From: a bacterium
GTDB taxonomy: Bacteria; NPL-UPA2; JAUVJM01
NCBI GenBank assembly: GCA_030606215.1
Contig: JAUWGW010000006.1
Span: 2,207 to 66,206, forward strand
Length of the DNA stretch: 64,000 nt
Direction: 5' to 3'
The notes under the pieces: model-generated
The model's database searches: none
Seen by the model: only the letters and a program-made list of their open reading frames with translations
Told to the model about the DNA's origin: nothing
Part shown: positions 25,967-60,867 of the stretch, in pieces
Layout of the letters: each line of letters starts with the position of its first letter
Position numbering within the stretch: position 1 is the first letter of the stretch
Position numbers and translations under genes: made by a program

Positions 25967-27308
25967 TTAGGGTTTTCCTTGCCTTTTCAATTAACCGCCT
26001 GACTTCTCGTGGAGATGTTGATTTTCTTCTTTTAACGGAAACCTCGGGTTTTAGAAGTTTCTTTACATCTGAGCCAAAACCGAAGGAATGAAAATCTTTG
26101 TCTGAGAGGTCAGTAAAGTTTTTCTTATTCTTAATACAGTGCAGAACCAGCTTCCCGACTTTCTCATGAGCTTTGCGGAAAGGAATACCCTTGGTCACAA
26201 GATATTCTGCTAAATCAGTCGCGGTAGTAAAACCTTCCTGAGCAAGGCTCGTAATCCTTTCAACATTCAAGTGTAGAGCCTTCAGAAACACTGGATAAAC
26301 TTCAAGAGACCTTTTCAAAGTATCAACTGTATCAAAGAGAGGCTCTTTATCCTCCTGCATATCACGGTTATAGGAGAGCGGTAAACCTTTCATCATAGTA
26401 AGTGTATTCACAAGGTTCCCATATACCCTTCCACATTTGCCGCGGATAAGTTCTGCGATATCGGGGTTTTTCTTCTGCGGCATCATACTGCTGCCGGTGA
26501 GGACAGTTTCATCAAGAGTTATGAAATCAAATTCAGGGGATGCCCACATAATGAGCTCCTCACTCAACCTTGAAAGATGCATCATTAATATGGCACCGGC
26601 AGAAAGGAATTCCAGGATAAAATCTCTATCGCTTACCGCATCTATGCTGTGTTCGCATACTCTTGAGAAGTTCAGGAGACGAGCGACGAATCTCGGCTCT
26701 ATCGGTAGAGTTGAGCCGGCGAGTGCTCCTGCACCGAGAGGCAAACAGTCAACTTCTAAAAGAGCATTTCTTAACCTCTTCTTATCCCGTTCAAGCATAT
26801 AGAAATACGTCATGATATGATGTGAGAAAAGTACCGGTTGAGCATGCTGAAGATGGGTAAAACCTGGCATTACTACATCAAGATTTCCTTCAGCTAAATT
26901 CAGGATACTTTTTTCCAGAGCTTTTAAAAGGTTCAAGATAGCCTTGATTTCATCGCGCAGGTATAGTCTCATATCAAGGGCGATCTGGTCATTCCTGCTT
27001 CTCGCAGTATGAAGTTTACCCGCTACCTTACCTATCTTCTTATGTAAACGCTTCTCAATTGAGAGGTGGATATCTTCCTCCGGTGCGAGTTTACCGACTT
27101 CATCCGCAATTTTCTTCAGACCCTTTATTATAATGTCTCTCTCCTTTAGCTTTATGATTTTGCATTTTGCAAGCATCTTTACATGCGCAATACTACCTTC
27201 TATATCATATTTAGCAAGCCGTATGTCAAATGATATTGAGGCCGCGAAATCATCTATAACGGAACTTCTCGCATCTTGAAAAGCTCCCCCCCATAGTTTA
27301 TCACTCAT
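25959..27308 (-). CDS. argH: Argininosuccinate lyase
   Basis: KLWGGAFQD at the N-terminus and the GSSMMPQKKNPD fumarase/ASL signature are present. Confidence 0.9.
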   Translation of the reverse strand: MSDKLWGGAFQDARSSVIDDFAASISFDIRLAKYDIEGSIAHVKMLAKCKIIKLKERDIIIKGLKKIADEVGKLAPEEDIHLSIEKRLHKKIGKVAGKLHTARSRNDQIALDMRLYLRDEIKAILNLLKALEKSILNLAEGNLDVVMPGFTHLQHAQPVLFSHHIMTYFYMLERDKKRLRNALLEVDCLPLGAGALAGSTLPIEPRFVARLLNFSRVCEHSIDAVSDRDFILEFLSAGAILMMHLSRLSEELIMWASPEFDFITLDETVLTGSSMMPQKKNPDIAELIRGKCGRVYGNLVNTLTMMKGLPLSYNRDMQEDKEPLFDTVDTLKRSLEVYPVFLKALHLNVERITSLAQEGFTTATDLAEYLVTKGIPFRKAHEKVGKLVLHCIKNKKNFTDLSDKDFHSFGFGSDVKKLLKPEVSVKRRKSTSPREVRRLIEKARKTLNA

Positions 27309-32594: not shown

Positions 32595-32725
32595 ATGCTT
32601 AAGAATTATACCTCTTAAGAAGCTAAAAAGTCAAAAACAAAAAGTGAGCAGGATGCAATCCCGCTCACCCAATGGATAACTACTCTTCTACTTGTAAATA
32701 TTCGGTGGCCTGTGTTTGAGTCCCT

Positions 32726-32751
32726 GTCATTCCTGCGGAAGCAGGAATCCA
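32726..32751. repeat. REP-like 26-bp palindromic element, copy 1 (gtcattcctgcggaagcaggaatcca)
   Basis: 9-bp stem attcctgcg/cgcaggaat with loop gaag. The same 24-mer recurs inverted at 45691-45714, and a compensatory variant is at 45647-45672. It is intergenic between argJ and rpsI. Confidence 0.6.
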
Positions 32752-32781
32752 GAGTAGATGACCGACATAGATTCTCGCTTG

Positions 32782-33168
32782 TTATCTCTTTGAAAACTGG
32801 AAGCGCGCTCTTGCTCCACGCTGGCCGTACTTCTTTCGCTCTTTCATACGCGAGTCACGGGTCAAAAAACCACCTTTCCTGAGCGTTAATCCGAGAGCAT
32901 CATCTGATTGGAGAAGTGCTCGAGCTGTTCCCAGTCTTATTGCTCCAGCCTGCCCTGAGATTCCACCTCCTCTAACTTTTGCCATGACATTGAACTTACT
33001 GACTGTTCCTGTTGCCTCAAGAGGTTCTCTTGTAACCTTCTCGAGGATTTTGCTGCTGAAATATTTTTCAGGGGGAAATCCGTTTACAGATATTCCTCCA
33101 TTACCGGGCAATAACCACACCCGGGCAACAGATTCTTTTCTTCGCCCAGTTCCGTAGTAACTAACCAT
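32782..33168 (-). CDS. rpsI: 30S ribosomal protein S9
   Basis: The C-terminus ...[22 protein letters not shown] and the overall sequence match S9. Confidence 0.95.
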
Positions 33169-33550
33169 TAACCACCACCGGTTTCTGCGCAGAATGCGGG
33201 TGCTCCTCCCCGCGATACACCCTGAGCCTGCACAACATTCTCCGACTTAGGCGATTCTTTGGCATCATCCCTTTTACAGCTTTCATCAAAACTTTTTCCG
33301 GTCTCTCAGCAATTAGTTTCTGGAAACTAACAAGTTTCACCCCGCCAGGGAAACCGCTATGGGAGAAATATTCTTTGTTCTCCCTTTTCTTCCCCGTAAG
33401 CACAATTTTCTCGGCGTTTATTACAATAACGTGGTCCCCGGCATCCAGGTTTGGTGCATAACTTGCCCTATGTTTCCCGCGCAGTAAACTTACAATCCCT
33501 GTAGCTAACCGCCCGAGGACTTTCCCCTTAGCGTCAATCAGATACCACAT
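33161..33550 (-). CDS. rplM: 50S ribosomal protein L13
   Basis: [17 protein letters not shown]...[15 protein letters not shown] matches L13. Standard rplM-rpsI order. Confidence 0.95.
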
Positions 33551-33551
33551 C

Positions 33552-33800
33552 TCATTCTTCTTTCTTCTCTTCTCCAGGCTTTTGTTCTTCCTTCTTCTCC
33601 TCTTTCTTGCTTCTTATCTTGTCTTTGATTGACCCAAGCCCTGCTCCAATTGCGACACAACCACCGAGAATCAGTAATGCCGGGACAGTAGCCACAAGCC
33701 CTTTCAACAAAAAGATTATCCCTCTCTGTCCAAACCACTCAAGAATCAACCCGGCTATCCCGAGCACAATCGCCACTATTCCACCAAGTAGACTAAGCAC
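33552..33800 (-). CDS. Small membrane protein (2 TM) with Lys/Glu-rich C-terminal tail
   Basis: 82 aa. Two hydrophobic helices are followed by KKEEKKEEQKPGEEKKEE. It is tightly packed between rplM and the O-antigen-ligase-like gene. Confidence 0.4.
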   Translation of the reverse strand: MLSLLGGIVAIVLGIAGLILEWFGQRGIIFLLKGLVATVPALLILGGCVAIGAGLGSIKDKIRSKKEEKKEEQKPGEEKKEE

Positions 33801-33803
33801 TGT

Positions 33804-35480
33804 TCATCCACCCCCTTTCAATGTTTTCGGTGAATTATACAATTGCAATTTTTCCCTGTCAACTCTTTTTTCCTCTTGAATAGCTTTAAGAAGAGAAAAA
33901 CTCTCTTCATCATATGGATTCTGATTTAAAGCTTCCCTCAGATGATGGATAGCTTCTCTCTTTCTCCCCATAGAAGCTGAGACAACTGCAATATTGTAGT
34001 GAGCCCTGGCAAAGTTCGGGGATAACTTCAAAATCTCATTGTAAATAAAGAGAGATTCTCCCGGTCTATTTGAAATAGCGTAGAGATATCCGAGTTTATA
34101 GAGAGTACTAAGGTTAGATGGAAAATGTTTCAGGCTTCTTTCCAAAAAATAAATTGCCCCATCTACTTCCCCTTTATTCTGGCAATCCATCCCTTTTTTG
34201 TAATAAATCTGACTTTTTATCTCTCTCAAACCAGATGGGATAGATATGAGAATAGTTATAGAGAGAAAGATTGGAATAAAATAAGAGAGAACCTGACTCA
34301 CTTTTCTATTCCCGGGGAGAGAGCTTGATGCCAGACCAAGACTCAAATAAAAAAAAGGCGGGACGGAATATGTTCTTAAGTTTGTGGAAAAGAGGTTATC
34401 TGCGAGGACAGCTAAAACCCCCGCTCCGAGACCGGTTAAGATATGCCAGTTTTCACCTTCCCGTAACTTCTTATTAAGAAGGAAGAAGAAGAAGACAATA
34501 AAGAGGATGAAAAAAAATAAGGAAGGGATACCGGTCTCAGCCGCCATTTCAAGATATTCATTGTGAGCGTGGTCAGTTATTGCAACTGTCTCTTCTCTTC
34601 CAAAATATTCTCTTGGTCGGAACTTTTGAAAAGAAGTCTCAAATTTACCAGGACCAAATCCTAAGAGAGGTTTTTCTTTAATCATTCTTATTGTACCGGT
34701 ATAATACTGGCAGCGAATATTTTCTTGAAGCTCTGAAATTGAAGATGGTATGAAAAGTGTTGCAATGAGGAAAATAAATGAGAAAATAAAAAAAAGAGCT
34801 TTTCTACCCATCTTTATTTTATCTCTCAGGAAATAGTATAGAACAAATAGAACTGAGGCAGAAAAACCGAAGAAAGCCGCCTGGGACTTACTGATATAGA
34901 GGCTGAAGAGGAAAAGAAACAGCGCGGGGATAAGAAATGGCATGTCTTTTCTCTTTTCAAGGATAAGGGAAATTAAAATGGGTATTGGCAGAATTATGTA
35001 ACCTGCGAAAAAATTTCTATTTCCGAAAGATGCAATTATTCTGCCTTCCCTGAAATACTGTGAAATTACCCAGGTGGAAGCAATGCTGGCGGAAATGAGC
35101 CAGGCGTAAATTACCCATCGTTCCCTCAAAACCTCTTTCAGATTAAATCCTATGAGAAAAATGGCAAGAAAGGTGATAGAAATATTTAACTGTTTGAAAG
35201 AAACAAGCGGGGAAGATGAAAAAGCTAAGGAGATGAGAAATAAAATATAATAAAGGAAAAGGGGAAAGAAAAGTAAAGAATTAAAAAATAGATTCCTTCT
35301 CTTTATGAGAAAATAAAATAAAAAAAGAAGTACAAAACATTGACATAAAGGAAATTTTATTAATGTGTAATCATAAGCCGCCCGCAGTCTAAAAAGAGTC
35401 CCCACTAAAAAAAATAGGGAGAGGATAAAGAAAGGAGGGAAAATTTTCTTCCCTCCCTTAGAAGAGAAACGAACTGCCAT
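33804..35480 (-). CDS. O-antigen ligase (Wzy_C)-like polytopic membrane protein fused to C-terminal TPR repeats
   Basis: 558 aa. Multiple TM helices, then the ...ITDHAHNEYLEMAAETGIP (Wzy_C) motif, then TPR-like repeats (AIYFLERSLKHFPSN...YNEILKLSPNFARAHYNIAVV...). Confidence 0.65.
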   Translation of the reverse strand: MAVRFSSKGGKKIFPPFFILSLFFLVGTLFRLRAAYDYTLIKFPLCQCFVLLFLFYFLIKRRNLFFNSLLFFPLFLYYILFLISLAFSSSPLVSFKQLNISITFLAIFLIGFNLKEVLRERWVIYAWLISASIASTWVISQYFREGRIIASFGNRNFFAGYIILPIPILISLILEKRKDMPFLIPALFLFLFSLYISKSQAAFFGFSASVLFVLYYFLRDKIKMGRKALFFIFSFIFLIATLFIPSSISELQENIRCQYYTGTIRMIKEKPLLGFGPGKFETSFQKFRPREYFGREETVAITDHAHNEYLEMAAETGIPSLFFFILFIVFFFFLLNKKLREGENWHILTGLGAGVLAVLADNLFSTNLRTYSVPPFFYLSLGLASSSLPGNRKVSQVLSYFIPIFLSITILISIPSGLREIKSQIYYKKGMDCQNKGEVDGAIYFLERSLKHFPSNLSTLYKLGYLYAISNRPGESLFIYNEILKLSPNFARAHYNIAVVSASMGRKREAIHHLREALNQNPYDEESFSLLKAIQEEKRVDREKLQLYNSPKTLKGGG

Positions 35481-35489
35481 GTTAAGCCA

Positions 35490-36092
35490 CTACGGATTTA
35501 CAAGAGCACCCTTTGTTGTCGTGCTACCATAACCATCATTAGGAATCTCGGAACTTATATCTGCCTTCTTCACCCAATCTGAATGCCCATCCATGTAGAG
35601 TGCATTTATTCCGTCGGTGGAATGGTTGGTACCAGTAGTTAACTCATCTGCCCAAACCGATGCCGCGCTGCCAGACTGGTCAACTGCCATGGCAGTATCA
35701 TTCTCTGTGCTGGCATCGATGGCACTCAGGTTGTAAGCCAGTGCATAGGAAATGTTCCCTGCTGCAAGACTTAAATTATCCGTATCCTTGGTGTCAGTAC
35801 TGCTCGGGCAAAAGAGAACACCACCTGAACAATATGTTCCATCAGTTACCAGGACCTGGAAGTCATTCACTGTGTTTTGGGTAGAACCAGCAGGGTACTC
35901 CTCATCATAGTCCATCGAATACATTGCCAATCCCAAGGCAATCTGCTTCTGGTTGCTCATACAGACGGCTCTTCTTGCCTGCTCTCTTGCTCTGCTCAAT
36001 GCCGGCAGGAGCATTGCCGCCAAAATCGCAATAATTGCGATAACAACTAACAACTCTATCAACGTAAAACCTCTTTTCATTTTTGTTGTCAC
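35490..36092 (-). CDS. Prepilin-type N-terminal cleavage/methylation domain protein with H-X9/10-DG C-terminal domain
   Basis: [48 protein letters not shown] at the N-terminus; C-terminal [14 protein letters not shown]. Second member of this family in the window. Confidence 0.7.
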
Positions 36093-36140
36093 CCCCTTTC
36101 AACTTTGGTCTATTCAATTTATAACATACCTCACTTTATC

Positions 36141-36169
36141 TTGTCAAGCCCAAAATTAAATGATATAAT
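36141..36169 (+). promoter_or_regulatory. Near-consensus sigma70 promoter with extended -10 (TTGTCA-17nt-TGaTATAAT) for the leuC-leuD-icd operon
   Basis: Read directly: ttgtca agcccaaaattaaatga tataat. It lies about 40 nt upstream of the GTG start at 36208. Confidence 0.45.
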
Positions 36170-36207
36170 TGCATAGATTTTTGATGAGGCAATTTTGGGG
36201 GAGAACA

Positions 36208-37467
36208 GTGGGCAGGACTGTTGTTGAGAAGATACTGAGTGAGCACAGCGGGAGAGAGGTTTGCGCTGGAGAATTTACTGTAGCAGCTGTTGATTTAATC
36301 CTTGCCCAGGATGGAACAGCGCCGCTTGCAATTGACGTTTTCAATCAGCTTGGGGTGGGGAAACTGGCAATTCCCGGGAAGTCAGCATTTTTCATAGACC
36401 ATGCTTCCCCTCCACCGCGTAGAGAACTTGCAAATGACCATGCGAAAATACGAAAGTTTGTCTCTGAGCATAGTGCAGTTATTTTTGATATAGGGGACGG
36501 AGTTTGTCATCAGGTGATGACGGAAAAGTGTACCTCACCAGGCGATATTCTTATTGGTGCTGATTCACATACAGTAACAGGTGGAGCTGTTGGGGCATTT
36601 GCTGTTGGAATGGGTTCAACTGATGTTGCTGTAGGGCTCGCATATGGCAAGAACTGGTTTCGTGTGCCCGAAACTTTTAAGATTCTTCTAAAGGGAATGT
36701 TCAGCAAAGCTGTTTTCCCGAAAGATTTAATTCTTCACCTGATTGGTCTCATCAAAGCGGATGGTGCAAACTATAAATGTCTTGAGTTTACAGGAGAATC
36801 TCTCAGGCATATGAGTATTCCGGATAGGATGACAGTTGCAAATATGTCGGTGGAAGCAGGTGCAAAATGTGGAATATTTCCGTCAGATGAGAGGACAAAA
36901 ATGTTCCTGACTGAACTCGGCAGGGAAGATAAATTCAGAAGAATTGAAGCTGATAAGGATGCTGAGTATGAAGAAACAATTGAAATTGACCTTTCAACTT
37001 TAAGACCTATGGTCTCGCTCCCTCACAGAGTGGATAGAGTTCTGCCTGTAGACGCTCCTGAATTAAAGGAAATAGAAATCAACCAGATTTTTATTGGTAG
37101 TTGCACAAACGGGAGAATTGAAGATTTGAGAATCGCATCCTCCATCATAAAAGGGAAGAGGAAACATGAGAATGTTCGTCTCATTGTAATTCCGGCCTCC
37201 CGCCTCACTTTCAAGCAGGCGATGGATGAAGGGATTCTTGAAATATTCAATGAATTTGGGGCATCTATAAATAATCCTGGTTGTGGTCCGTGCTGTGGAG
37301 TTCATCAGGGCATTCCTTCTGATGGAGAAAATGTCCTTTCTACCTCAAACAGGAATTTCAAGGGCAGAATGGGTAATCCTGAGGCTTTTGTCTATCTGTC
37401 CTCACCGGCTACAGCCGCCGCTTCGGCAATAACAGGTAGAATTACTGACCCAAGGGAGGGGATGTGA
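36208..37467 (+). CDS. leuC: 3-isopropylmalate dehydratase large subunit family protein (LeuC/homoaconitase-type aconitase-family hydro-lyase)
   Basis: About 420 aa from GTG 36208 (GGGGGAG RBS). GADSHTVTGGAVGAFAVGMGSTDVAV, GSCTNGRIEDLR and the CGPCCGVHQG Fe-S ligand motif are present. Confidence 0.85.
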   Translation: MGRTVVEKILSEHSGREVCAGEFTVAAVDLILAQDGTAPLAIDVFNQLGVGKLAIPGKSAFFIDHASPPPRRELANDHAKIRKFVSEHSAVIFDIGDGVCHQVMTEKCTSPGDILIGADSHTVTGGAVGAFAVGMGSTDVAVGLAYGKNWFRVPETFKILLKGMFSKAVFPKDLILHLIGLIKADGANYKCLEFTGESLRHMSIPDRMTVANMSVEAGAKCGIFPSDERTKMFLTELGREDKFRRIEADKDAEYEETIEIDLSTLRPMVSLPHRVDRVLPVDAPELKEIEINQIFIGSCTNGRIEDLRIASSIIKGKRKHENVRLIVIPASRLTFKQAMDEGILEIFNEFGASINNPGCGPCCGVHQGIPSDGENVLSTSNRNFKGRMGNPEAFVYLSSPATAAASAITGRITDPREGM

Positions 37468-37961
37468 AACCTACAGGGAGAGTATGGAAATTTGGGGATA
37501 GCATCAGCACTGACCTCATCTGCCCTGGAAGGTATTACCACCTTCGTTCAAATTTGAATGAGCTTGCAAAACATGTTCTTGAAGACGCTCGCAGTGAATT
37601 TGCTGGTTGTGTCAAGAAAGGGGATTTTATTGTTGCGGGAGCAAATTTTGGTCTTGGTTCAAGCAGAGAGCATGCCGCAATAATAATTAAGATGGCAGGA
37701 ATCTCAGTGGTTTTGGCAAAATCCTGCGCGCGGATCTTTTATCGCAATGCGTATAATATTGGGCTTCCCGTAATTTTGTGCGATACTGTTAAAATAAATG
37801 ACAGGGATGAACTTCGTATAGAGATGGAGAGCGGAGAGATAAAAAACTGTACCACGGGCGAGACTCTGCATTTCTCTCCAATCCCGCAGATAATGGCAGA
37901 TATTTTAAAAGAAGGCGGGTTGGTTTCATATTTAAAGAAATATGGGGATATCAAGATATGA
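37464..37961 (+). CDS. leuD: 3-isopropylmalate dehydratase small subunit family protein
   Basis: 165 aa. [18 protein letters not shown]...[14 protein letters not shown] is the LeuD swivel-domain signature. ATGA overlap with leuC. Confidence 0.85.
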
Positions 37962-39148
37962 AATTTGACCGTGTAAAGCCGCCATCAAATGGTGAGAAAA
38001 TATCCTTCCACGGCGGTAAACTTCAGGTGCCGCAGAACCCTGTAATTCCTTATATTGAAGGAGATGGTGTGGGGCCGGACATTATGAAGGCTGCAAGGCG
38101 GGTTTTTGATTCTGCAGTCGCTAAAGCATATGGCGGCAGGAGAAAAATTATATGGTTTGAAATTTTCGCAGGTGAAAAAGCGAACAACTCCTGTGGAGAA
38201 TATCTCCCAAAGGATACTCTTGAAGCTATAGAGAATTATGTTGTTGCAATAAAAGGCCCTCTGACAACACCTGTTGGAGGCGGATATAGAAGTCTGAATG
38301 TTACAATCAGGCAGGAACTTGACCTCTATGCCTGTGTGCGTCCTGTGAGATATTTTAAGGGTGTTCCTTCACCTCTTAAACATCCGGAGAAATTAAATGT
38401 TGTCATATTTCGTGAGAATACTGAAGATGTCTATGTTGGAAACGAGTGGGAAGCAGGAACAGGGGAAGCAAAGACGATAATAGAGTATCTGAACACTAAA
38501 TTCGGAACGAAGATAAGAGAGGCTTCGGGAATTGGAATTAAGCCGATGAGTGAGTTTGCAACAAAAAGGCTTATGAGGAAAGCTATAAAGTATGCAATTG
38601 AGGAGGGCAGGAATTCTATCACTATAATGCATAAAGGGAATATAATGAAATATACTGAAGGCGCTTTCAGAGAATGGGCGTATGAGGTGGCAAGAGAAGA
38701 GTTCCCTGGCCTTAAAATCATAATTAAAGATAGAATTGCAGATAGTATGTTCCAGCAAATTCTGACAAGACCTGATGAATATGATATTATTGTTGCGCCC
38801 AATCTGAATGGAGATTATATCTCTGATGCGTGTGCGGCACAGGTAGGAGGTCTTGGCATTGCGCCGGGTGCAAATATGGGGGATTTCGTAGCTCTCTTTG
38901 AAGCAACACATGGAACTGCACCAAAATATGCTAACCAGGATAAAGTTAACCCGGGCTCTCTTATTCTGTCAGGGGTGATGATGTTTGATTATATAGGGTT
39001 GAAAGAAGCATCAAAGATAATTATAGATGCTTTTCAAGAAACAATTCTGCAGAAAAAGGTCACCTACGATTTAGCGCGCCAGATGGAGGGGGCTGTAGAG
39101 CTTAAAACTTCTGAGTTCGCCTCCGCAATTATAGAAAATATGAGTTAG
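37958..39148 (+). CDS. icd: NADP-dependent isocitrate dehydrogenase
   Basis: 396 aa. Near-colinear with E. coli Icd: ...[23 protein letters not shown]...[12 protein letters not shown]...[72 protein letters not shown] overlap with leuD. Confidence 0.92.
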
Positions 39149-39161
39149 AGGAGTAACTATC

Positions 39162-40721
39162 ATGCGAAAGATGAAAATTGCCTGCCTTGTTATTGCCATT
39201 TTATTAGTAGTAGCTGGTGTGGCACTGATGCACATTGAGTTTTCCCATCCAGAGCTCAGAAACGCAGTTGCTTCAAGATTGAGCGCTTCTCTCGGGATAC
39301 CTGTGAGAATGGAGAAACTTTCTCTCAGACTCTCGCAGGGAATAAAAGTCAAAAATCTCTCATTGGGCGCTGAGGACGCAGAAATTCTCTCTGCAAAAGG
39401 GATAATTCTCCAGTGTAATTTCCTTCAAATGCTTCGCAGACAATTCAATGTGCGAAGTGTAGTTGTTGAAAAGCCAGTTCTCACATTGCGAAAAGAGCAG
39501 ATTGGATTCCTGCTCCTTCCACTGATTGCCACCAGTCAGCATTCTTCTTCCAGTAACTCGGAATTCCAGTTTCAGCTTGCGGAAGCTCGGGTGCGTAGTG
39601 GCAAAGTAAATGTTGAGCGTGAAGAAAGTGGTTCTCTCGCGGTTGATGAAATTGACCTTGAGGTGTCTTCGGAGGGAAAAGGAAAGCCTGTTAAGATTAA
39701 AGGAGCGGGGACAATGCAGGCATTTGACTTCTCCATGCTTGGTTCATATCAAGCAGGTGAGAAGAGCCCGGTCGATTTTAGAATAACTACTGATGTAGAC
39801 TGGAGCAGAATAAATGAGACACTTAGCAAACTAAATCTGAGAGCGCCAGCCAATCTCAAAGGGAGAGGAAAAAGCACAGTTGATATTATCCTCACAGGCA
39901 GCCCCGGTGAATTGAATGTAGATGTAACCAGCGACCTCACAGAAAATGAGCTCTCCTATGGTAACCTGCATAAGCCAGGCGGATTTGTGACAAAATTTAA
40001 GATGAGCTCTGTATATTCTTCTGGGAGCCTAAGAGTGGATGATATTGTTGTGATTATTGGTGAAGGTAGGTTGACCGGCTCGGGGGAGATTTTGCAGGGC
40101 GGGAAATATAAATTCTCCATAAAAGGCGAAAACATAGATATGGAGAAACTTTTGAGTATAAAGGAGAAAGATGAGGTAAAACTTAATATGAGTGGAAAAG
40201 CAAAGATGCAAGCGCAAATTGCTAATAGTGGCGGGGGCACGCAGGGGCTAAATGGAGGAGGTAGTCTACAAATTCAAAATGGTCTGGTTAAATCGTTTTC
40301 ATGGCTTGAAGACCTTTTTTCAACAATTAATCTGCCTGAGCTTATGCCGTTTAAATATACAAAAATTATCGGAAGTTTTAATATTATAGATGGGAAAGTG
40401 GATATTACAGAAACTATAGTCCATGGGGAAGATGCTGTTCTTGCTACTGAAGAAGGGGAAATTGACCTTGTCAAAAAAACGAAGAATATCTCAGCTGACT
40501 TAGCACTTGCCCCGCATCTTGTGAAAAGGCAGCGTTTCAAATTCAAGGAGTTTGACAAATTTTTCTATGTGGATGAGAATGGTTTCGCACATTTAGCCGT
40601 TGTCTGGAGAGGACCGCTCTCAAAAGGAACTCCTGATTTAACAGCTTCCTTCCTCAAAACAGGAATAAAAAAATATGGCAGCGAGTTACTGGAGAAGTTA
40701 TTTGGGGAAGATGAGGATTAG
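39162..40721 (+). CDS. AsmA-family-like envelope protein (N-terminal TM anchor, long beta-rich periplasmic region)
   Basis: 519 aa. N-terminal TM (IACLVIAILLVVAGVAL) followed by a repetitive low-complexity region. The assignment is tentative. GAGGAG RBS. Confidence 0.45.
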   Translation: MRKMKIACLVIAILLVVAGVALMHIEFSHPELRNAVASRLSASLGIPVRMEKLSLRLSQGIKVKNLSLGAEDAEILSAKGIILQCNFLQMLRRQFNVRSVVVEKPVLTLRKEQIGFLLLPLIATSQHSSSSNSEFQFQLAEARVRSGKVNVEREESGSLAVDEIDLEVSSEGKGKPVKIKGAGTMQAFDFSMLGSYQAGEKSPVDFRITTDVDWSRINETLSKLNLRAPANLKGRGKSTVDIILTGSPGELNVDVTSDLTENELSYGNLHKPGGFVTKFKMSSVYSSGSLRVDDIVVIIGEGRLTGSGEILQGGKYKFSIKGENIDMEKLLSIKEKDEVKLNMSGKAKMQAQIANSGGGTQGLNGGGSLQIQNGLVKSFSWLEDLFSTINLPELMPFKYTKIIGSFNIIDGKVDITETIVHGEDAVLATEEGEIDLVKKTKNISADLALAPHLVKRQRFKFKEFDKFFYVDENGFAHLAVVWRGPLSKGTPDLTASFLKTGIKKYGSELLEKLFGEDED

Positions 40722-41158
40722 TGATGAACGTGAATATTGTATGGGGTGAAATTAATGTATCAACGGATAAACGGTTCAAGATAATAGATATAACTCAGGA
40801 CGTGAGAAAGATTGTCGAGAATGGAAAGGTGAAAGAGGGAACTGTAACAATTTTCAATCCCCATGTTACATGTGCCGTCTGTATTAATGAACATGACACT
40901 GAACTCTGGGAAGATTTGTTAGAAGCGTATCAGAAACTTGCTCCTCTAAAAGGAAACTACCGGCACAACGCCAAATACAGCGGCATCCAGGGTGAGCAAA
41001 ACACACACGCCCATATACTCAATACCCTGATTGGGGCAAGTGTGAATCTTCCTGTGAGAGATGGGAAACTGATTCTCGGAACCTGGCAATCAGTCCTGTT
41101 TGTAGAACTGGATGGCTGTAGAAGAAGAAAACTGACAGTGCAGGTTACCGGGAAATAG
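40721..41158 (+). CDS. YjbQ/UPF0047 family protein (secondary thiamine-phosphate synthase fold)
   Basis: 145 aa. TVTIFNPHVTCAVCINEHDTELWEDL...HILNTLIGASVNLPVRDGKLILGTWQSV matches the YjbQ family. Confidence 0.7.
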   Translation: MMNVNIVWGEINVSTDKRFKIIDITQDVRKIVENGKVKEGTVTIFNPHVTCAVCINEHDTELWEDLLEAYQKLAPLKGNYRHNAKYSGIQGEQNTHAHILNTLIGASVNLPVRDGKLILGTWQSVLFVELDGCRRRKLTVQVTGK

Positions 41159-41178
41159 ATAGTAGTTTCCGAGAAATT

Positions 41179-41198
41179 TTCCGAGGCCCTCCTCGGAA
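41179..41198. terminator. Bidirectional hairpin between convergent yjbQ-like gene and the korG-like gene (ttccgagg-ccct-cctcggaa)
   Basis: Perfect 8-bp stem with 4-nt loop read at 41179-41198. It lies between convergent gene ends. No clear U-tract follows. Confidence 0.4.
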
Positions 41199-41211
41199 CA
41201 GCTTCCACATC

Positions 41212-41751
41212 CTATCGCTGTGCAAAATCCCCCCCACTGATGAGGGATTTTCTATTTACTTCAAGTAATCCATGCCACCTTTCGGGAAGCACATCTTGCA
41301 GAAGACGGCATGCTTTCTCGACTGATGTTAACTTTTTCAACGAGAGATACGCTCCAAGCATGACCATATTTGCAGAGCGGATGTTTCCGGCATCTTCAGC
41401 AAGTTTATTGGCAGGCAATTTTATCACCTTAATATCGCTGCGCTCCGGTTCTTTATCAATAAGGGAGGAATTGAGAATTAATAACCCTTCTTTCTTAAGC
41501 CTTGGGCAGAACTTATCAAGTGATGGTTTATTCATAACAACAATGGTTGATGGGCTGGAACTGAGAGGAGATGCAATTTCTTCTTTTGAGATAATCACTG
41601 TGCAGTTAGCTGTTCCGCCTCTTACTTCAGCTCCGTATGATGGCATATAAGTGAGGCGATACCCTTCCTTCATTGCAATATAGGCAATGAATTTACCCAT
41701 AAACATTACACCCTGCCCGCCAAATCCGGAAATAACTATTTCTTCATGCAT
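41212..41751 (-). CDS. 2-oxoacid:ferredoxin oxidoreductase, gamma subunit
   Basis: 179 aa. [50 protein letters not shown] is the typical gamma subunit sequence. Confidence 0.8.
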
Positions 41752-42487
41752 CTTTCAAATTTCCCTTTATAACGCCCAATGGGAAATTGGGTATCATTTT
41801 TTCCTCAATCCATTCCTTTGCTTCTTTTGGCGAAAGTCTCCAGTAACTTGGACATGGGGAGAGAATCTCAACAAGAGAGAATCCTTTATTCTCAAGTTGA
41901 ACCTGGAAAGCCTTCTTTATAGCCAGTTTGGTTTTCCTGATATTTGCAGGATTACTGATAGCTGTCCTGCAGAGAAAAACTGTTCCAGGGAGGATAGCAA
42001 GTAATTCTGAAACTTTTAAAGGGTATCCTGCACTCGAATCTCGTCCGCCTGGAGTAGTAGCTGTTACCTGTCCGAGCATTGTAGTTGGTGCCATCTGTCC
42101 GCCTGTCATTCCATATACTGCATTGTTAACAAAAATTACAGTTATCCTTTCCCCTCTATTTGCGGCATGGATTATTTCCGATGTCCCTATTGCGGCAAGG
42201 TCACCATCACCCTGGTAGGTAAAAACTACCCTCTCCGGAAGAATACGCTTTATTCCTGTAGCAACGGCGGGTGTTCGTCCATGTGCGGCTTCTGTCATAT
42301 CTATATTGAAGTAATCATATGCAATAACGGCGCATCCTACAGGCGCAACTCCAATAGTCTTCTCCCTGATACCGAGTTCATCAATCACCTCTCCGAGCAG
42401 GCGGTGAATCACACCATGCCCGCAGCCAGGACAATAATGTGTCCAGACATCTTTCATTGATTCGGGAAGCGAGAAAACTTTTTTCAT
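41744..42487 (-). CDS. 2-oxoacid:ferredoxin oxidoreductase, beta (TPP-binding) subunit
   Basis: [15 protein letters not shown]... and GDGDLAAIG...[14 protein letters not shown] motifs are present. ATG at 42487 overlaps the TGA of the alpha subunit; the track's 42568 start would overlap alpha by 85 nt. Confidence 0.85.
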
Positions 42488-43536
42488 AGAAGTTCTCTTA
42501 TCTTCCGACTGATTTCCTCTGCAGTAGGTACTCCACCACCTGTTCTTCCATAGAAATGAACAGGACATTTTCCACTGACAGCTAATCTAACATCTTCCAC
42601 CATCTGCCCTGCGCTCATCTCAATAACGAGAAAACAATTTATCCGTGAGGATACATCTGCTATAACCTTTTCAGGAAATGGCCAGAGAGTTATCGGTCTT
42701 ATAATTCCTGCTCTTATCCCTTCACTCTTTACCTGGTTTAGAGCCGCTTTTGCAATACGGGCTGAGGTCCCATAAGCAACAAGGATTATCTCAGCATCAT
42801 CAATCCCTTCCTCTTCGTAGAGAATTTCCTTTTCCTTCATAACTCTGAATTTATCCTGAAGGTGTCTATTGTGTTTTTCAAGTTCCCCTTCTTTCAGAAT
42901 AAGTGAGCGGATGATTCTGGGGGAACGGCCTTTTGCACCTGTTAGAATCCAGTCTTTCTCAGGGCAAGCAAGCTTGCCAACCCTTTTTTTGATTTTAACA
43001 GGTTCCATCATCTGTCCGAGGATACCATCTCCAAGAATAAGCACAGGATTTCTATATCTGTCAGCTAAATCAAAGGCAGCTCCCATGAGTTCAGCAAGTT
43101 CCTGGACATTAGCAGGTCCAAAAACTATCAAATTGTAATCTCCGTGTCCTCCTCCTTTTGTTGCCTGGAAATAATCGGATTGCGCAGGAGCGATATTACC
43201 AAGTCCCGGGCCTCCGCGCATCATGTTCACAATTACAGCAGGAAGTTCATTCCCTGCAAGGTAGGATATTCCCTCCTGTTTCAGACTTATGCCGGGACTT
43301 GAGGAGGAAGTCATGGCACGTGCGCCGGCAAGAGAAGCTCCAAACACCATACTAATAGCCGCCAGCTCACTTTCTGCTTGTATGAATACACCGCCCTCCT
43401 CAGGCATCCTTCTTGCCATATAGGCAGTCAACTCATTCTGAGGAGTTATTGGATACCCGGCGTAGAACCTGCATCCTGCCTGGATTGCAGCTTCCCCAAC
43501 AACCTCATTCCCGCACATTAATACCTTTTCACTCAT
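42484..43536 (-). CDS. 2-oxoacid:ferredoxin oxidoreductase, alpha subunit
   Basis: 350 aa. [29 protein letters not shown]...[29 protein letters not shown] is the alpha-subunit N-terminal signature. Confidence 0.85.
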
Positions 43537-45604
43537 GGACTATCTCGTAAACAAATACGCCTCTTTCAAGAAATAGTTGCCTGAGGTATTTTTCGGATGT
43601 CAGGAACTCAGCAAACATCTCACTTGCTTTCTCGCTTGCCCAGTTAAATGAGTGGTAATGTTGAGCTACCCTTTTGACTTCGGAGGCATTAAACAGAATA
43701 TGTGTGATTCCAAGTGTGTGGAGCTTATCGCAGATCTCTTTGCTTGATGAGCTTTCATTGACAATTTCAACAATGATGTTTGTATCAAGCGGACTGTTTG
43801 ATACAACCTCGCGATTACAGTAGTATGTCTGGTTCTCCCCTATGAAAAGGAGCTTTGCATCCTCTGGAAGTTCATTATTTATGTAACGAAAGGCAGGATA
43901 CTGGTAGAGGGGTGAGTCAATCAGAAACTCATCCCGATTTTTTATGCCTGTAGCCACTTTCAGCAAATCATATTTAGCTATTGTCAGCGGTAGCCATGCT
44001 AAATTAAAAAGAAACACAAAAAGAATAACAAGATGTATGAACAAAGTCAACTGCTTGTTTCTTTTGTAGCTTTCCACAGCGTATGCTGAAGCTATGCTCA
44101 GAGCCGGGAGACAGGGGATGAGGAATCTTGTATCCTGATGAGTAAAGAAAACCCAGAGCAAAAAATATATACCACCATAAATTAAAAAGAGTTTTACAAC
44201 GGGTTTCACAGAACGGATGAATAAAAGACAGGGCAGTAATAATATAAATGCAGGGCCAATCTTTTTATCCATATTAATTCTCCAGAGGAGCGAGAGAATA
44301 TGCCCTATCCCTAAGTTTTGCGGCTGGTGATGTTTCATAAATCTTTCAGGGTTAAAAGTCTCGCCGAACGGATGCCCGAAGAATTTATAAAAGAAATTGT
44401 GAAAAAAAGGATATACAGGGTTATGAGTGAAAAAGGCATTTTTTATAAGCCATGGGGATGCAACCAGTAAACTGATGAAAATAAAAAGAGCTATTTTTTT
44501 AAAGCAAAGGATGGGAATTTCCTTATCGCTAAACTCTTTAATTACAATTGCTAAAAGCAGGATTGGAAGAAGGAGCAGTAAAGCTGTATACTTTGTTCCG
44601 ATGGACAACCCGCAGAATATGGCTGATACAAATAACCAGGTTTTTTTCTTTGCTGAAAACCAGTTGAGAAATGCCGCTACAGCCAGAAATTCATACAGGG
44701 TTAACATCAGGTCATTAAAAGCCCATCCTGAGAGAAGACCAACAAACGGAATATTGTAGAAAATGAGCGAGGCGAGTAAACTTACCTTCTTATTAAAATG
44801 TTTCACTGAAAAGGAATAAATAGCAAGTATTATGAAGATGCCCATTGAAAAGTGAACTAATTTCGCAAGTGTATCTCCATAGAGAAGCAAGCTGAAAAGA
44901 TAAAGAAATTCCGTTGTCATCGGGAAATTTGCGTATACATTGTGAGGTATGTAGAAAATCTGATGTTCTCCTGCATAAAGCTTCGGGATAGCAAGGTGAT
45001 ATGCGAGGCTGTCATAATTAAGTTCTGGAGTAAAAACCTGGATAAGGTAAAGACAAATGCTGATGATGAGGATAACGCCAAATATGACTACAAATTGGGA
45101 ATTGCCTTTTCCATTTTGAATTTCACACTTTTCTTGAGGAAAGTGCAAGTGCCCCGCTTTCTTTTGTTTCCCCTCCCTCGAGGGGAGGGGGTAAGGGGGA
45201 GGGTGATGGTTACGAAGTTTTCTTAAGAATGTGCGGAGTTGTGGGATGGAGAAGGCTAAGAGGATTACTAATAGTGTATAAGCAGCAGTTCTGTAAAGAA
45301 GGTGGAGAAAACCAAAAATAAAAATTAGAAAGCTCAAAATCCCAAATCCGAGTGAACTGGAAAAGACAAAAGTTTCCAGGGAAGAGCTAAAATATATTTT
45401 CAAATAGCGAAATACTCTCTCACCAAGAGAAAATGCAATAATAATTATGGCAAAAAGTAATATGAAGTTGATTGAAGAGGAAACAATGTGGTGAAGGAGA
45501 AGGAAGTGTTCATTATAGTTGATAAAACGCAGGGCCACCCCAACCACCCATACAAGGACGAAGCATATTACGATAGGTGATTTAACCCTGTAACTCATTC
45601 TCAC
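43529..45604 (-). CDS. Large polytopic membrane protein (about 16 predicted TM; possibly GT-C-fold glycosyltransferase-like) with an internal Pro-rich linker
   Basis: 691 aa. Highly hydrophobic with many TM helices. An internal hydrophilic segment RNHHPPPYPLPSREGKQKKAGHLHFPQ is encoded by a GC-rich near-palindrome at 45170-45200. Function is not assignable from sequence. Confidence 0.55.
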   Translation of the reverse strand: MRMSYRVKSPIVICFVLVWVVGVALRFINYNEHFLLLHHIVSSSINFILLFAIIIIAFSLGERVFRYLKIYFSSSLETFVFSSSLGFGILSFLIFIFGFLHLLYRTAAYTLLVILLAFSIPQLRTFLRKLRNHHPPPYPLPSREGKQKKAGHLHFPQEKCEIQNGKGNSQFVVIFGVILIISICLYLIQVFTPELNYDSLAYHLAIPKLYAGEHQIFYIPHNVYANFPMTTEFLYLFSLLLYGDTLAKLVHFSMGIFIILAIYSFSVKHFNKKVSLLASLIFYNIPFVGLLSGWAFNDLMLTLYEFLAVAAFLNWFSAKKKTWLFVSAIFCGLSIGTKYTALLLLLPILLLAIVIKEFSDKEIPILCFKKIALFIFISLLVASPWLIKNAFFTHNPVYPFFHNFFYKFFGHPFGETFNPERFMKHHQPQNLGIGHILSLLWRINMDKKIGPAFILLLPCLLFIRSVKPVVKLFLIYGGIYFLLWVFFTHQDTRFLIPCLPALSIASAYAVESYKRNKQLTLFIHLVILFVFLFNLAWLPLTIAKYDLLKVATGIKNRDEFLIDSPLYQYPAFRYINNELPEDAKLLFIGENQTYYCNREVVSNSPLDTNIIVEIVNESSSSKEICDKLHTLGITHILFNASEVKRVAQHYHSFNWASEKASEMFAEFLTSEKYLRQLFLERGVFVYEIVHE

Positions 45605-45646
45605 TCTCTTTATGGATTAGTGTGAGTTCAGTGAATCCCATTTCTT

Positions 45647-45672
45647 GTCATTCCCGCGCAAGCGGGAATCCA
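45647..45672. repeat. REP-like palindromic element, copy 2, compensatory variant (gtcattcccgcgcaagcgggaatcca)
   Basis: Same architecture as 32726-32751. The stem substitutions are paired (t->c with a->g), so the hairpin is preserved. Confidence 0.55.
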
Positions 45673-45690
45673 TCCCGGGCTCCAACTTTA

Positions 45691-45714
45691 GATTCCTGCT
45701 TCCGCAGGAATGAC
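45691..45714. repeat. REP-like palindromic element, copy 3, inverted orientation (gattcctgcttccgcaggaatgac)
   Basis: Its reverse complement is identical to the 24-mer core at 32726-32749. It is intergenic between the MFS gene and the 691-aa membrane protein gene. Confidence 0.6.
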
Positions 45715-45719
45715 GTGGT

Positions 45720-46949
45720 TCAGTAAACTTTCTCGCGTAGTCTGCGCGCCCGGAGAGAAAGTCCGCTCTGGATAAGCACTCCTGTAAGCACCACCGCTGA
45801 GCAAAACCAATATACAGTAGCCATTGAGTATCTCTGATAGATTATTCCGCCGATAGAGGAGCCGCAAATAAGACCGGCAGCAATAAGCGACTCGTGTATA
45901 GCCATACGTTTTGGTCTATCCGTGCTTCCAGATACACCGTGAAAAAGGCTGTACGTGTAGCCTAAGGCCATTAACAGTCCTATCCCTCCCAAAATGAGCC
46001 CCAATAATAAAGGTGAATGAGTATAAACCATCAAGATCAATAAAATTGCAAGAGATACCTGTCCCAAAAGCATCGGTAAACTTCTAAAGTGCCAGAAAGT
46101 TGTTCTCCCCAGCATGATAAAACCGGAAGTTGTAAATAGAGCGCGTGATAAGAATAACAGACCGATGACACTTTTCCTCATAAATAAATCAGCCCTCGCA
46201 GAGACAGGGAAAATGTTGAGTATTACACCCATTATAACATAGGTAGTATAAAGACCGACCCACGCTGGATAACGAACTAGTGTATCCTGCCCTTTTTCAA
46301 GACTCCGCCTTTCAAGCGGTAATTTAGTGTCTCTGTCCTTCCGGATACGCGGCAGTGAGAGGATTGCCCCGATAATCATGAAACTGGTTAAGAGAAAGAG
46401 TGCGCTGCCGGCATAAATTGGCAGTTCTGTCCCCTTTTCGCTCAAGTATCCTGCCAGAAAAGGACCGATTATCATTCCTGCACTCCAGGAAAAGTTAAAC
46501 TTAGATATTGTCTTACTCAGTTCAATCCCTTCAACCTTCTGTGAGAGCCAGCCCATTAGAGGTGGCCAGAAAAGAGAAGTCGAAAAACCGTACAAGCCGT
46601 AGAATATGTAGACCCAGATGAGTGAGTCAGAACTGTGTATTGCAAGAGTAAAAACACACATACAGGATGTGGCTATTACCAGAGTATACCGTGGCAGAAT
46701 ATGGTCAAAAAGCGGGCGTATGAATATGCAGCCTGAAATAAAACAGAGTGACCAAAATGCAACGAGGAGTCCGATCTGGCTTCCGGATGCATTGAAAATA
46801 TCGCGCATATAAAAGACTATTCCAAGGGATACCAATCCTGCGCCAACAGCTGCGAGAAAGGCCGATGAAAAAATGACCGTTGTTTTCCCAATACCAGTGT
46901 AGAATGACCTTATCAACTGGCGTCGTTGACTAATATATCGCGGTTTCAA
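45720..46949 (-). CDS. MFS-type transporter
   Basis: 409 aa. About 12 hydrophobic helices in two halves. The loop motif G..SD...RPK... after TM2 is like the MFS signature. Substrate unknown. Confidence 0.55.
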   Translation of the reverse strand: MKPRYISQRRQLIRSFYTGIGKTTVIFSSAFLAAVGAGLVSLGIVFYMRDIFNASGSQIGLLVAFWSLCFISGCIFIRPLFDHILPRYTLVIATSCMCVFTLAIHSSDSLIWVYIFYGLYGFSTSLFWPPLMGWLSQKVEGIELSKTISKFNFSWSAGMIIGPFLAGYLSEKGTELPIYAGSALFLLTSFMIIGAILSLPRIRKDRDTKLPLERRSLEKGQDTLVRYPAWVGLYTTYVIMGVILNIFPVSARADLFMRKSVIGLLFLSRALFTTSGFIMLGRTTFWHFRSLPMLLGQVSLAILLILMVYTHSPLLLGLILGGIGLLMALGYTYSLFHGVSGSTDRPKRMAIHESLIAAGLICGSSIGGIIYQRYSMATVYWFCSAVVLTGVLIQSGLSLRARRLREKVY

Positions 46950-55148: not shown

Positions 55149-56465
55149 CTATTTTGGCGCCATACAAAAATCTTTTGCTTTCGCCAGGTCTTCGGGTATC
55201 AAAAATCTTACAGTTGTTCGTTCAATAGCACGCTCACCTCGGAGTGCTAAATTTAAGCAATAAGCTTTGTCAGGTTTATATGTGCCAATGAAACTCCTAA
55301 GGGATTTGCTTATCTTGAATTCTCTTAAATCAACAGCTTTGACTTCAAAAGGAATGGGTTTGAGACTTGGAATCACAAAGTCTACTTCTGCGCCAGCCTT
55401 GGTCCGCCAAAAGTTTATGGGACTTGAATACTTCAAGCGCTCGCCCAAACAAAGGTAGGAGAAATTCTCAAAAAGGCTGCCCTTATCAGGGCGAAATTCG
55501 AAATCCCCAAAGCTTCCGATAGCAAAATTTCTTATACCGTGGTCACGAAAATAAACCTTAGGGCTTTTCAAGAGTTCTTTCCTGGGATTTCTATGAAAAG
55601 GTTTTACAAAATCCAGGATAAAGGTTTGTTCCAAATAAAACAGGTAGTGTTCTAGTGTATTCTTATGGATACTCAAAGTGTTGGAGAGCTCATGCTTATT
55701 TACCAGATTTCCTATTTGCGAAGAAAGAATCTTAACAAGGTTGCGGAATGCCTCTTCGTTTTCGATGTTAAGAAAAGACTTGATATCCTTCTCGATGTAA
55801 CTTTGGAATATCTCTTTGAGAAGCTGCAGTTTTAAATCTTCTTCCTTGGCCAGAGCAACTGCAGGGTATCCTCCATATGTGACATAATGATTCAAAACTC
55901 TTCTAAAGTCCTCTTTTTTCTCTATGACTTCATTGACACTCTTCCTTGGGAATAGGGCCTGAGAAAGTTCTTCCAGGTTGAAAGGATTAAGACGAAAAAC
56001 TACCTTTCTTCCAGTAAGAGCTTCATGAATTTTGCTTCTAATCTCCAGTGAACTTGAACCTGAGACTATCAGTTTAGCTGGTAGGTGAAGATCATAAATA
56101 CCTTTTAGAAATAAACCCGGTTCCTTTAAACGTTGAACTTCATCAATCAACACGTAGGACTTCCTTTTTGATTTGATTATTAAATCAACCAAATAATCCG
56201 GATTATCAAAAAACTGAAGCTGATGAGGAACATCAAGGTTAAAATAGTATATGTTGTCAGTCTTCGGGAGAAGGGCATCGTTTATTAACTGATAAAGGAG
56301 AACACTTTTTCCGGTTTGGTGAGCACCAGTAACAATAATTATTTCTTCTCTCTCAATCCATGGTGCTATTTTCTCTTTTATCTTACGCTGAACTACCTGG
56401 GGTGGCAGCTTTACCCCAAGCCTTTCCAACTCCTTTTTCTTTTTGCTATATCTCATTTTTGCCAT
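55149..56465 (-). CDS. AAA+-type ATP-binding protein with C-terminal DUF4143-like domain
   Basis: 438 aa. Walker A IIIVTGAHQTGKSVLLYQL and Walker B LIDEVQRL. The C-terminal region is typical of the ATPase+DUF4143 family often found next to R-M and defence genes. Confidence 0.7.
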   Translation of the reverse strand: MAKMRYSKKKKELERLGVKLPPQVVQRKIKEKIAPWIEREEIIIVTGAHQTGKSVLLYQLINDALLPKTDNIYYFNLDVPHQLQFFDNPDYLVDLIIKSKRKSYVLIDEVQRLKEPGLFLKGIYDLHLPAKLIVSGSSSLEIRSKIHEALTGRKVVFRLNPFNLEELSQALFPRKSVNEVIEKKEDFRRVLNHYVTYGGYPAVALAKEEDLKLQLLKEIFQSYIEKDIKSFLNIENEEAFRNLVKILSSQIGNLVNKHELSNTLSIHKNTLEHYLFYLEQTFILDFVKPFHRNPRKELLKSPKVYFRDHGIRNFAIGSFGDFEFRPDKGSLFENFSYLCLGERLKYSSPINFWRTKAGAEVDFVIPSLKPIPFEVKAVDLREFKISKSLRSFIGTYKPDKAYCLNLALRGERAIERTTVRFLIPEDLAKAKDFCMAPK

Positions 56466-56589
56466 GATGCAACTCCCTCACTATTTGCACATGTACTTTT
56501 AGCAAGGTTATTATAACATAGCAAAATAGTTAGTCAAGTACTTCTTGCCTTATCACGGAAATCCAGTTTGGTGTTCCTGCCCTTCCGTC

Positions 56590-56700
56590 GTTTAGACCTT
56601 GAGTCGTTTGTGAGGCGTTTATTAGGCATTTTAGGCATTTATTAGGCGTTTGAGCCCTTTGTGAGCCTTTCATGATTCCTTTGAGTCCTTTCAATCAAAT
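56590..56700. repeat. Low-complexity region with ~10-bp periodic T-rich motifs (cgtttattaggc / atttattaggc / ctttgtgagc / ctttgagtcc)
   Basis: Read directly. It lies in the 430-bp intergenic region between the hsdS 3' end and the ATPase 5' end. It is not a CRISPR (no spacers; unit about 10 bp). Confidence 0.3.
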
Positions 56701-56895
56701 ATTTTTGTCCGATATCTGTCCATTATTTGTCCTTTATCATTCATTCATAAGCTCGTTGCTGCAAGAATATATAACCTTTTTCCTATTTTGCGCAGGGGAC
56801 AGCCTGTTTTCTCCCTCCAGTTACGCCTTTGAATGGTATTTCTTGAAATTCCCAGGATCTCTGATATTTGTTCAACAGTTAAAATATCTTTACAC

Positions 56896-59354: not shown

Positions 59355-59356
59355 GC

Positions 59357-60844: not shown

Positions 60845-60867
60845 GAGAGGTTCCTTTCCTTATGTGC

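Follow-up and report, generated by a model that had tools for sequence, protein, structure and literature searches.

Three intergenic hairpins in an NPL-UPA2 contig and their relation to the NTS/SRM repeats of Ssn nucleases

What kind of element is a short palindrome that recurs three times between the genes of a bacterial contig, twice as an inverted pair? The question is raised by a 64-kb stretch of contig JAUWGW010000006.1 (assembly GCA_030606215.1, GTDB lineage NPL-UPA2), the whole of which is referred to here as the window. An initial annotation of this DNA described three copies of a hairpin-forming element as a small family resembling repetitive extragenic palindromic (REP) sequences, shaped by selection on structure, and proposed that they could stabilize mRNAs or mark targets of a REP-associated transposase (RAYT). 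Judged by their sequence, the three hairpins are not new and appear to be genuine members of a family that has already been described, the Neisseria Transformation Sequence (NTS) and its generalization, the Ssn-related motif (SRM). Most likely, they are oriented DNA elements that work as single-stranded DNA substrates of a GIY-YIG nuclease of the Ssn family. The REP-like character and the selection on structure seen in the initial annotation were borne out by the analysis, and the small family and the RAYT partner were not.

The hairpins and the family they resemble

The features under study are the following.

32725-32752, plus strand: NTS/SRM-type hairpin copy 1, TGTCATTCCTGCGGAAGCAGGAATCCAG; stem 32729-32736 paired with 32741-32748, loop GGAA
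45646-45673, plus strand: NTS/SRM-type hairpin copy 2, TGTCATTCCCGCGCAAGCGGGAATCCAT; stem 45650-45657 paired with 45662-45669, loop GCAA
45688-45715, minus strand: NTS/SRM-type hairpin copy 3, CGTCATTCCTGCGGAAGCAGGAATCTAA as read on the minus strand, which is its forward strand
45646-45715, no strand assigned: convergent doublet of copies 2 and 3, with 3' ends facing, 20 nt between the 24-mers and no gene inside

All three copies are present exactly where the initial annotation had placed them. The core of copy 1 is the 24-mer GTCATTCCTGCGGAAGCAGGAATC at 32726-32749 (plus strand), and that of copy 2 is GTCATTCCCGCGCAAGCGGGAATC at 45647-45670 (plus strand). Copy 3 carries the 24-mer of copy 1 on the minus strand at 45691-45714, and these two cores are identical. 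The differences that had been read between copies 1 and 2 were also found, namely T to C with A to G at one stem pair and G to C in the loop, and the distance of 18 bp given for the inverted copies 2 and 3 is true when measured from a 26-mer to a 24-mer. The variable position is stem pair 6, which is T-A in copies 1 and 3 and C-G in copy 2. The GTC 5' of the palindrome, the C 3' of it and a loop of the form G-N-A-A are kept in every copy.

Each copy folds as single-stranded DNA into a perfect 8-bp stem with a 4-nt loop, with energies of -7.6 to -9.7 kcal/mol and z-scores against shuffles of -2.9 to -5.2. The folds of copies 1, 2 and 3 were calculated at -9.0 kcal/mol (z -5.2), -9.0 kcal/mol (z -3.7) and -7.8 kcal/mol (z -4.5), respectively. 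When the doublet is folded as one strand (45640-45722), an alternative single long hairpin is obtained (-18.2 and -20.7 kcal/mol; z -4.5 and -5.3). Not one of 100 dinucleotide-preserving shuffles of the window produced any match to the hairpin pattern. The window itself holds no further full copy, with up to three mismatches allowed. The family trait of being multi-copy and intergenic is thus represented here by three copies in 64 kb, all three of them intergenic.

How widespread is the element? The pattern proposed in the initial annotation was scanned over 185,579 species genomes, one genome per species, and many additional copies were found. At least 120 stretches, drawn from many phyla, contain the 24-mer, and the matches listed include Patescibacteria, Dehalococcoidia, Planctomycetota, Binatia, Gemmatimonadota, Omnitrophota, Bacteroidota and all classes of Proteobacteria. 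With this distribution, and with the family already described in 2025 as NTS/SRM, the term "small family" cannot be kept. A 24-mer spread over so many phyla is therefore not a lineage-specific REP. The fetched loci include no near relative of the window, the closest proteins having 55% amino-acid identity to those encoded here.

The family has been characterized in Neisseria (Chenal et al., Nat Commun 2025, PMC11893778). The NTS has a 28-nt consensus, CGTCATTCCCGCGMAVGCGGGAATCYRG, which contains the classic dRS3 repeat, and the SRM is its cross-phylum generalization. SsnA is a small single-domain GIY-YIG protein (cd10448). It was shown to bind and cut no form of the NTS hairpin other than the forward strand as single-stranded DNA. 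The RNA form of the hairpin is not bound, and SsnA is inactive on RNA. For cleavage, the three bases that precede the palindrome on its 5' side are important, and for binding, the C that directly follows it. Strand-specific binding and cleavage of single-stranded DNA were demonstrated for four homologues, that of Neisseria and three others. When N. meningitidis is transformed, the system restricts DNA that carries an NTS. The ssnA genes typically have the motif on their flanks, and among genomes that hold over 200 SRMs, 81% were found to encode ssnA.

The window copies resemble this family closely. Copy 2 agrees with the NTS consensus at 26 of 28 positions and departs from it only at its two ends (positions 1 and 28). 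In copies 1 and 3, 24 of 28 positions agree, and two of the four mismatches make up one compensated stem pair. The near-identical sequence is accompanied by the 8-bp stem, the G-N-A-R loop and the orienting 5' GTC and 3' C. Copy 2 also fits exactly the 20-bp dRS3 pattern as that paper defines it, ATTCCC-N8-GGGAAT (PMC11893778). Copies 1 and 3 read ATTCCT-N8-AGGAAT and fall outside it, and the name dRS3 is used for Neisseria genomes only, to which the window does not belong.

Is the hairpin maintained by selection, as the initial annotation had argued from a single pair of compensatory substitutions? When both variable stem positions were left free, the pattern gave 138 matches among those listed, with the variable pair reading C..G in 100 and T..A in 35; the three mismatched cases were T..G (two) and C..A (one). 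Mismatch-tolerant matching, a method that penalizes double changes, gave an independent set of 129 further sites from the same listed loci. Among the sites with at most four mismatches (chance expectation about one), stem pairs changed on both sides were Watson-Crick in 57 cases and broken in 3. In an alignment of 84 distinct sequences of the family, pairing is kept in 97.2% of the stem cells, compared with 87.9% in column shuffles and 20-49% when partners were slid. Double changes were seen in seven of the eight stem pairs, and the observed score was reached by none of 500 shuffles. The stem is thus kept by compensatory change, and the claim of selection on structure is upheld across the family. 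A test for the selected strand, in which G-T and A-C single changes were compared, gave no clear asymmetry (roughly 24 versus 30 in a hand tally).

The marks that give the element its orientation are conserved as well. The 5' G, T and C are present in 115, 118 and 122 of the 129 sites, and the 3' C in 117. The loops seen in this set are GAAA, GAAG, GCAA, GCAG and GGAA. In loci with a GC content of at most 55%, 74 of 85 sites lie outside long open reading frames (ORFs).

Convergent pairs and GIY-YIG genes

The inverted arrangement of copies 2 and 3, which had been likened to that of REP and BIME elements, is real and proved to be typical of the family. Among 80 pairs of neighbouring hairpins within 150 nt of each other, 68 are convergent, with their 3' ends facing, 5 are divergent and 7 are tandem; the median gap is 30 nt.

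Which genes accompany the hairpins? Metagenomes were scanned with an SsnA-like query, which returned genes at 65-81% identity. Three of the returned genes were tested and found to be single-domain GIY-YIG genes (PF01541). Linkage was scored in a sample of 80 metagenomic loci of GIY-YIG genes encoding about 94 aa. A hairpin lies within 250 nt upstream of the gene in 47 of 74 loci, 42 times in forward orientation and at a median of 22 nt before the start. Downstream, a hairpin was found in 44 of 70 loci, 34 times in reverse orientation and at a median of 18 nt. Both flanks carry a hairpin in 36 of the loci. With a forward copy upstream and a reverse copy downstream, the GIY-YIG gene therefore sits inside a convergent pair. 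The linkage of the motif to small GIY-YIG genes is in this way reproduced in metagenomes, and the window doublet at 45646-45715 has the geometry of the hairpin pairs that flank ssnA, minus the gene. An inverted pair around a short spacer is also familiar from the NIME architecture of Neisseria, in which inverted repeat copies flank a short variable spacer.

One locus (L104, 5100-5345) contains an ssnA-type gene that has been cut down by internal deletion or frameshift to an N-terminal part (MMRNPAVYILAS...) and a C-terminal part (...RERRLKKWNRAWKIALIEEQNPQWHDFW). The remnant is still bracketed by a convergent hairpin pair, and the locus may represent an intermediate between gene-bearing units and gene-less doublets. 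Another GIY-YIG ORF (PF01541, in locus L003) was considered as linkage evidence and set aside, as it lies about 6 kb from the motif and has none within 160 nt upstream or 200 nt downstream.

A further asymmetry was observed in orphan 5' half-sites, that is, occurrences of GTCATTCCYG without the second arm. Of the 97 counted, 42 are located on the upstream side of a full site, no more than 70 nt away, and only 3 at such a distance on the downstream side. Immediately ahead of full hairpins and on their strand, the orphans are arranged as short tandem "stutters", which are seen in several phyla (for example, in loci L076, L011, L036, L071, L078 and L110). These stutters could be footprints of nick-and-repair or template switching on the side of Ssn cleavage. 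The excess is not mentioned in the parts of PMC11893778 drawn on here and may be new.

Larger assemblies of the motif were found as well. In Candidatus Omnitrophus magneticus (L036, JYNY01000540.1, 3-398), hairpin pairs form a tandem array with a 186-bp period, and a second array (L100, 5345-6125) has a period of roughly 190 bp and four forward hairpin copies. Both are higher-order repeat structures built from the hairpin motif.

When the ORFs within 1.5 kb of the motif were clustered over the 120 listed loci, only housekeeping families and spurious ORFs running through the repeats emerged. Read-through of the repeats yields the recurrent peptides VIPAKAGIQ, RHSRESGNP, DSRLRGNDG and IPAFAGMT, which appear as false protein families in unrelated genomes. 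These clusters are an annotation artefact worth masking.

The proposed Ssn substrate

How might such an element work? The elements combine a 5' GTC, a perfect 8-bp stem, a tetraloop of the G-N-A-R type and a 3' C, and they would fold into the hairpin when their forward strand is exposed, as in incoming transforming or conjugating DNA or in replication or repair intermediates. The hairpin and its 3' C would then be bound by an Ssn-family nuclease, a small protein with a single GIY-YIG domain, which would nick the DNA a few nucleotides 5' of the GTC. The cleavable form would lie on the plus strand in copies 1 and 2 and on the minus strand in copy 3. Since copy 2 is of the cleavable type on one strand and copy 3 on the other, the doublet would offer one site per strand. 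It would be the gene-less counterpart of the unit in which ssnA stands between two facing motifs (NTS->ssnA<-NTS). Effects on the transcripts of rpsI or of the neighbouring MFS transporter gene, if any, would be secondary.

The basis for this proposal from the present analysis consists of family sequence identity, hairpin stability, covariation, the orientation marks, the geometry of the doublet and the metagenomic loci in which the motif is physically linked to GIY-YIG genes. By extension, the host presumably encodes a cognate Ssn nuclease that would cut the window copies, and the repeats may have spread through Ssn-linked mobility.

Several observations weigh against the proposal. The window differs from an ssnA locus in that it has no ssnA gene: a permissive phmmer screen of its 536 stop-to-stop ORFs detected no GIY-YIG domain (best E 0.18). 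Only three copies are seen in the 64 kb of sequence. The authors of the SsnA paper themselves describe the biological role of Ssn outside Neisseria as unknown (PMC11893778). The criterion used there for an NTS, at most one mismatch, is failed by copies 1, 2 and 3 (4, 2 and 4 mismatches, respectively), although it was designed for Neisseriaceae genomes; the failure of copies 1 and 3 counts against the proposal. Finally, the published SRM regular expression, HGTCWYN(0-2)YYVSBRHN(0-5)WNVSBRGN(0-2)RNCYNB, matches copy 2 (0.18 sites are expected per shuffled window) and leaves copies 1 and 3 unmatched.

This last failure can be traced to a single position. Copies 1 and 3 are missed because the T of their T-A pair sits on a "V" position of the expression, so that the compensated pair they carry is excluded. 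The same expression was applied to 149 hairpins around ssnA genes, of which 83 were matched and 66 missed. Of the 149, 21 carry the T-A pair seen in copies 1 and 3, and all 21 are among the missed sites. That copies 1 and 3 go unmatched therefore reflects the limits of the pattern and is uninformative about membership. Because it overlooks T-A at pair 6, a compensated stem variant that is common, the published pattern undercounts the family. That the expression is blind to these variants may be a new observation with respect to the parts of PMC11893778 drawn on here. Strict pattern matching is thus the exception, and the NTS/SRM family fits the window copies on every structural and contextual feature testable here, including their intergenic, multi-copy and cross-phylum occurrence.

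Could the doublets themselves be mobile? One possibility is that gene-less convergent doublets such as 45646-45715 are derivatives of NTS->ssnA<-NTS units by internal deletion, similar to miniature inverted-repeat transposable elements (MITEs), and that the GIY-YIG nuclease mobilizes an unrecognized class of hairpin-ended, phylum-crossing elements. The convergent geometry shared with the pairs around ssnA, the decay-like locus L104 and the asymmetry of the half-sites (42 versus 3) hint in this direction, and the idea is offered as a tentative and rather doubtful one. In any case, the strict convergent-pair geometry, common to gene-bearing and gene-less units, bears on how the repeats spread. 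The rule that both kinds of unit follow this geometry may be new, as neither it nor the gene-less doublets are mentioned in the sections of PMC11893778 drawn on here.

Genomic setting and competing explanations

Copy 1 lies between the stop codon of rpsI (32782, minus strand) and the start of argJ (32594), the first gene of a long operon for arginine and lysine biosynthesis. Copies 2 and 3 are flanked by the MFS transporter gene, whose stop codon is at 45720 (minus strand), and by a PMT-like glycosyltransferase gene that starts at 45604. The initial annotation had placed all copies in 3' intergenic regions; each indeed lies 3' of one gene and, at the same time, 5' of the gene that follows it on that strand. 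Their surroundings are ordinary chromosome. Within the published repeat family the hairpins are unremarkable members, and they give no reason to read the neighbouring genes differently.

Do the hairpins instead act mainly in RNA, as stem-loops at 3' ends that stop transcription or shield the rpsI and MFS mRNAs from 3' exonucleases? All copies lie just 3' of genes and are stable, and across the loci the motif was found between co-directional genes in 24 cases, between convergent genes in 7 and between divergent genes in none. Copy 1 is located in the 3' untranslated region of rplM-rpsI. An intrinsic-terminator test, however, called none of the three hairpins, and no T-run follows any copy. The rplM-rpsI transcript has a terminator-like hairpin of its own, 13 pairs followed by a T-run at 32670-32642 (minus strand), between copy 1 and argJ. 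Copy 1 is not the rpsI terminator, because this separate intrinsic terminator lies downstream of it. Directly after the terminator, at 32634-32605 (minus strand), is a sigma-70-like promoter, TTGACT-18-TATAAT (11 of 12 positions), placed to drive the argJ operon. The flanks and loop define an orientation, yet singletons were found 5 times in the direction of transcription and 6 times opposite to it (a small sample), and of the three window copies, two read antisense to the transcript. Rfam has no relevant family for the element at gathering or permissive thresholds, and SsnA binds the DNA form of the hairpin and not the RNA form (PMC11893778). An RNA-level role is for these reasons an improbable explanation of the elements, and mRNA stabilization is unlikely to be their primary function.

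A second explanation is that the copies are REP or REPIN elements replicated by a RAYT, an IS200/IS605-like Y1 transposase. The analogy was pointed out by the authors of the SsnA work (PMC11893778) and is apt in several respects. Both kinds of repeat are short extragenic palindromes, often in inverted pairs as in REPINs and BIMEs, that work as single-stranded hairpins, and in both a conserved 5' flank is recognized by a nuclease whose single-copy gene is itself flanked by the repeats. They differ in the enzyme, which is of the HUH/Y1 type for REPs and of the GIY-YIG type for NTS/SRM. The REPs bound by RAYTs are defined by the conserved tetranucleotide GTAG at the 5' foot of the hairpin and by an imperfect stem with a bulge, as binding requires (PMC3479197). 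The copies here have the 5' bases GTCA and a perfect 8-bp stem, with neither GTAG nor a bulge. The search for a RAYT gene suggested by the initial annotation was run on the window and found no Y1 transposase, and no transposase-like family recurs among the ORFs within 1.5 kb of the motif in the 120 listed loci. The gene that the motif does flank encodes a GIY-YIG nuclease. Moreover, REPIN-RAYT systems are mostly inherited vertically within lineages, according to the abstracts of REPIN preprints, in contrast to a 24-mer shared across phyla. The link to a RAYT is accordingly not supported, and a RAYT origin of the copies is very unlikely.

The same low standing applies to a third explanation, in which the copies are attachment or target sites of site-specific recombinases, such as IS110-family transposases or filamentous-phage integrases, as reported for the Neisseria dRS3. 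The dRS3 repeat is the target of a specific phage recombinase (PMC11893778), and it is the pattern to which copy 2 conforms. No insertion sequence (IS), integrase or prophage gene, however, adjoins any copy in the window, and no recombinase family recurs near the motif in the 120 listed loci. A target role would also be secondary to whatever creates and maintains the repeats. We regard this explanation as highly improbable.

The window annotation is in line with these results. Pfam annotation of the main ORFs covered all long ORFs except two, and among the annotated ORFs there is no Y1/RAYT transposase, IS110-type transposase or GIY-YIG nuclease. Two 409-aa ORFs with TTG starts, one of which ends 6 bp from copy 3, were considered as IS110/IS1111 transposases and rejected, as Pfam identifies them as an MFS transporter and an ABC ATPase. 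No direct repeats of 40 bp or more were found in the window.

Chance palindromes or a degenerate CRISPR-like repeat, for which a sub-threshold Rfam similarity to CRISPR-DR58 (18 bits versus a gathering score of 38) could be cited, can be given almost no weight, since there is no regular array and no cas gene in the window, and a chance palindrome is ruled out by the empty shuffles, the hundreds of homologous copies in many genomes and their covariation.

Some isolated matches in the window were also recorded. The SRM expression has an extra match at 35861-35890 (plus strand), and the 10-mer half-site GTCATTCCTG occurs at 6972-6981 (minus strand) and 26988-26997 (plus strand). All three lie in well-supported ORFs and have no second arm. 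The two half-sites, against about 0.25 expected, are mildly unusual at most, and all three were judged to be chance matches.

Other features of the window lie apart from the hairpins. Two proteins with a prepilin-type N-methylation motif and a DUF1559 domain are encoded at 8896-9528 (plus strand) and 35490-36092 (minus strand), and subunits of a 2-oxoacid:ferredoxin oxidoreductase at 41212-43536. This gene content, with DUF1559 expanded in such groups, suggests that the host is an anaerobe resembling Planctomycetota, Verrucomicrobiota or Omnitrophota (PVC/Omnitrophota-like) rather than a proteobacterium; a Coxiella/Legionella-type gammaproteobacterium, considered on account of the 42% GC, finds no support in it. 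NTS/SRM hairpins would accordingly be present in a probable PVC/Omnitrophota-like anaerobe. Genes of a type I restriction-modification system, hsdS (56896-57732) and hsdM (59357-60844), are found within 55149-61403, where no hsdR was identified. The same stretch includes a DUF6036 nucleotidyltransferase gene (58749-59354), an unannotated 350-aa ORF (57716-58768) and an AAA_14/DUF4143 ATPase gene (55149-56465). All of these genes lie beside a tRNA-Ser(GCT) gene at 61314-61403, and 55149-61403 is possibly a small defence island adjoining that tRNA gene.

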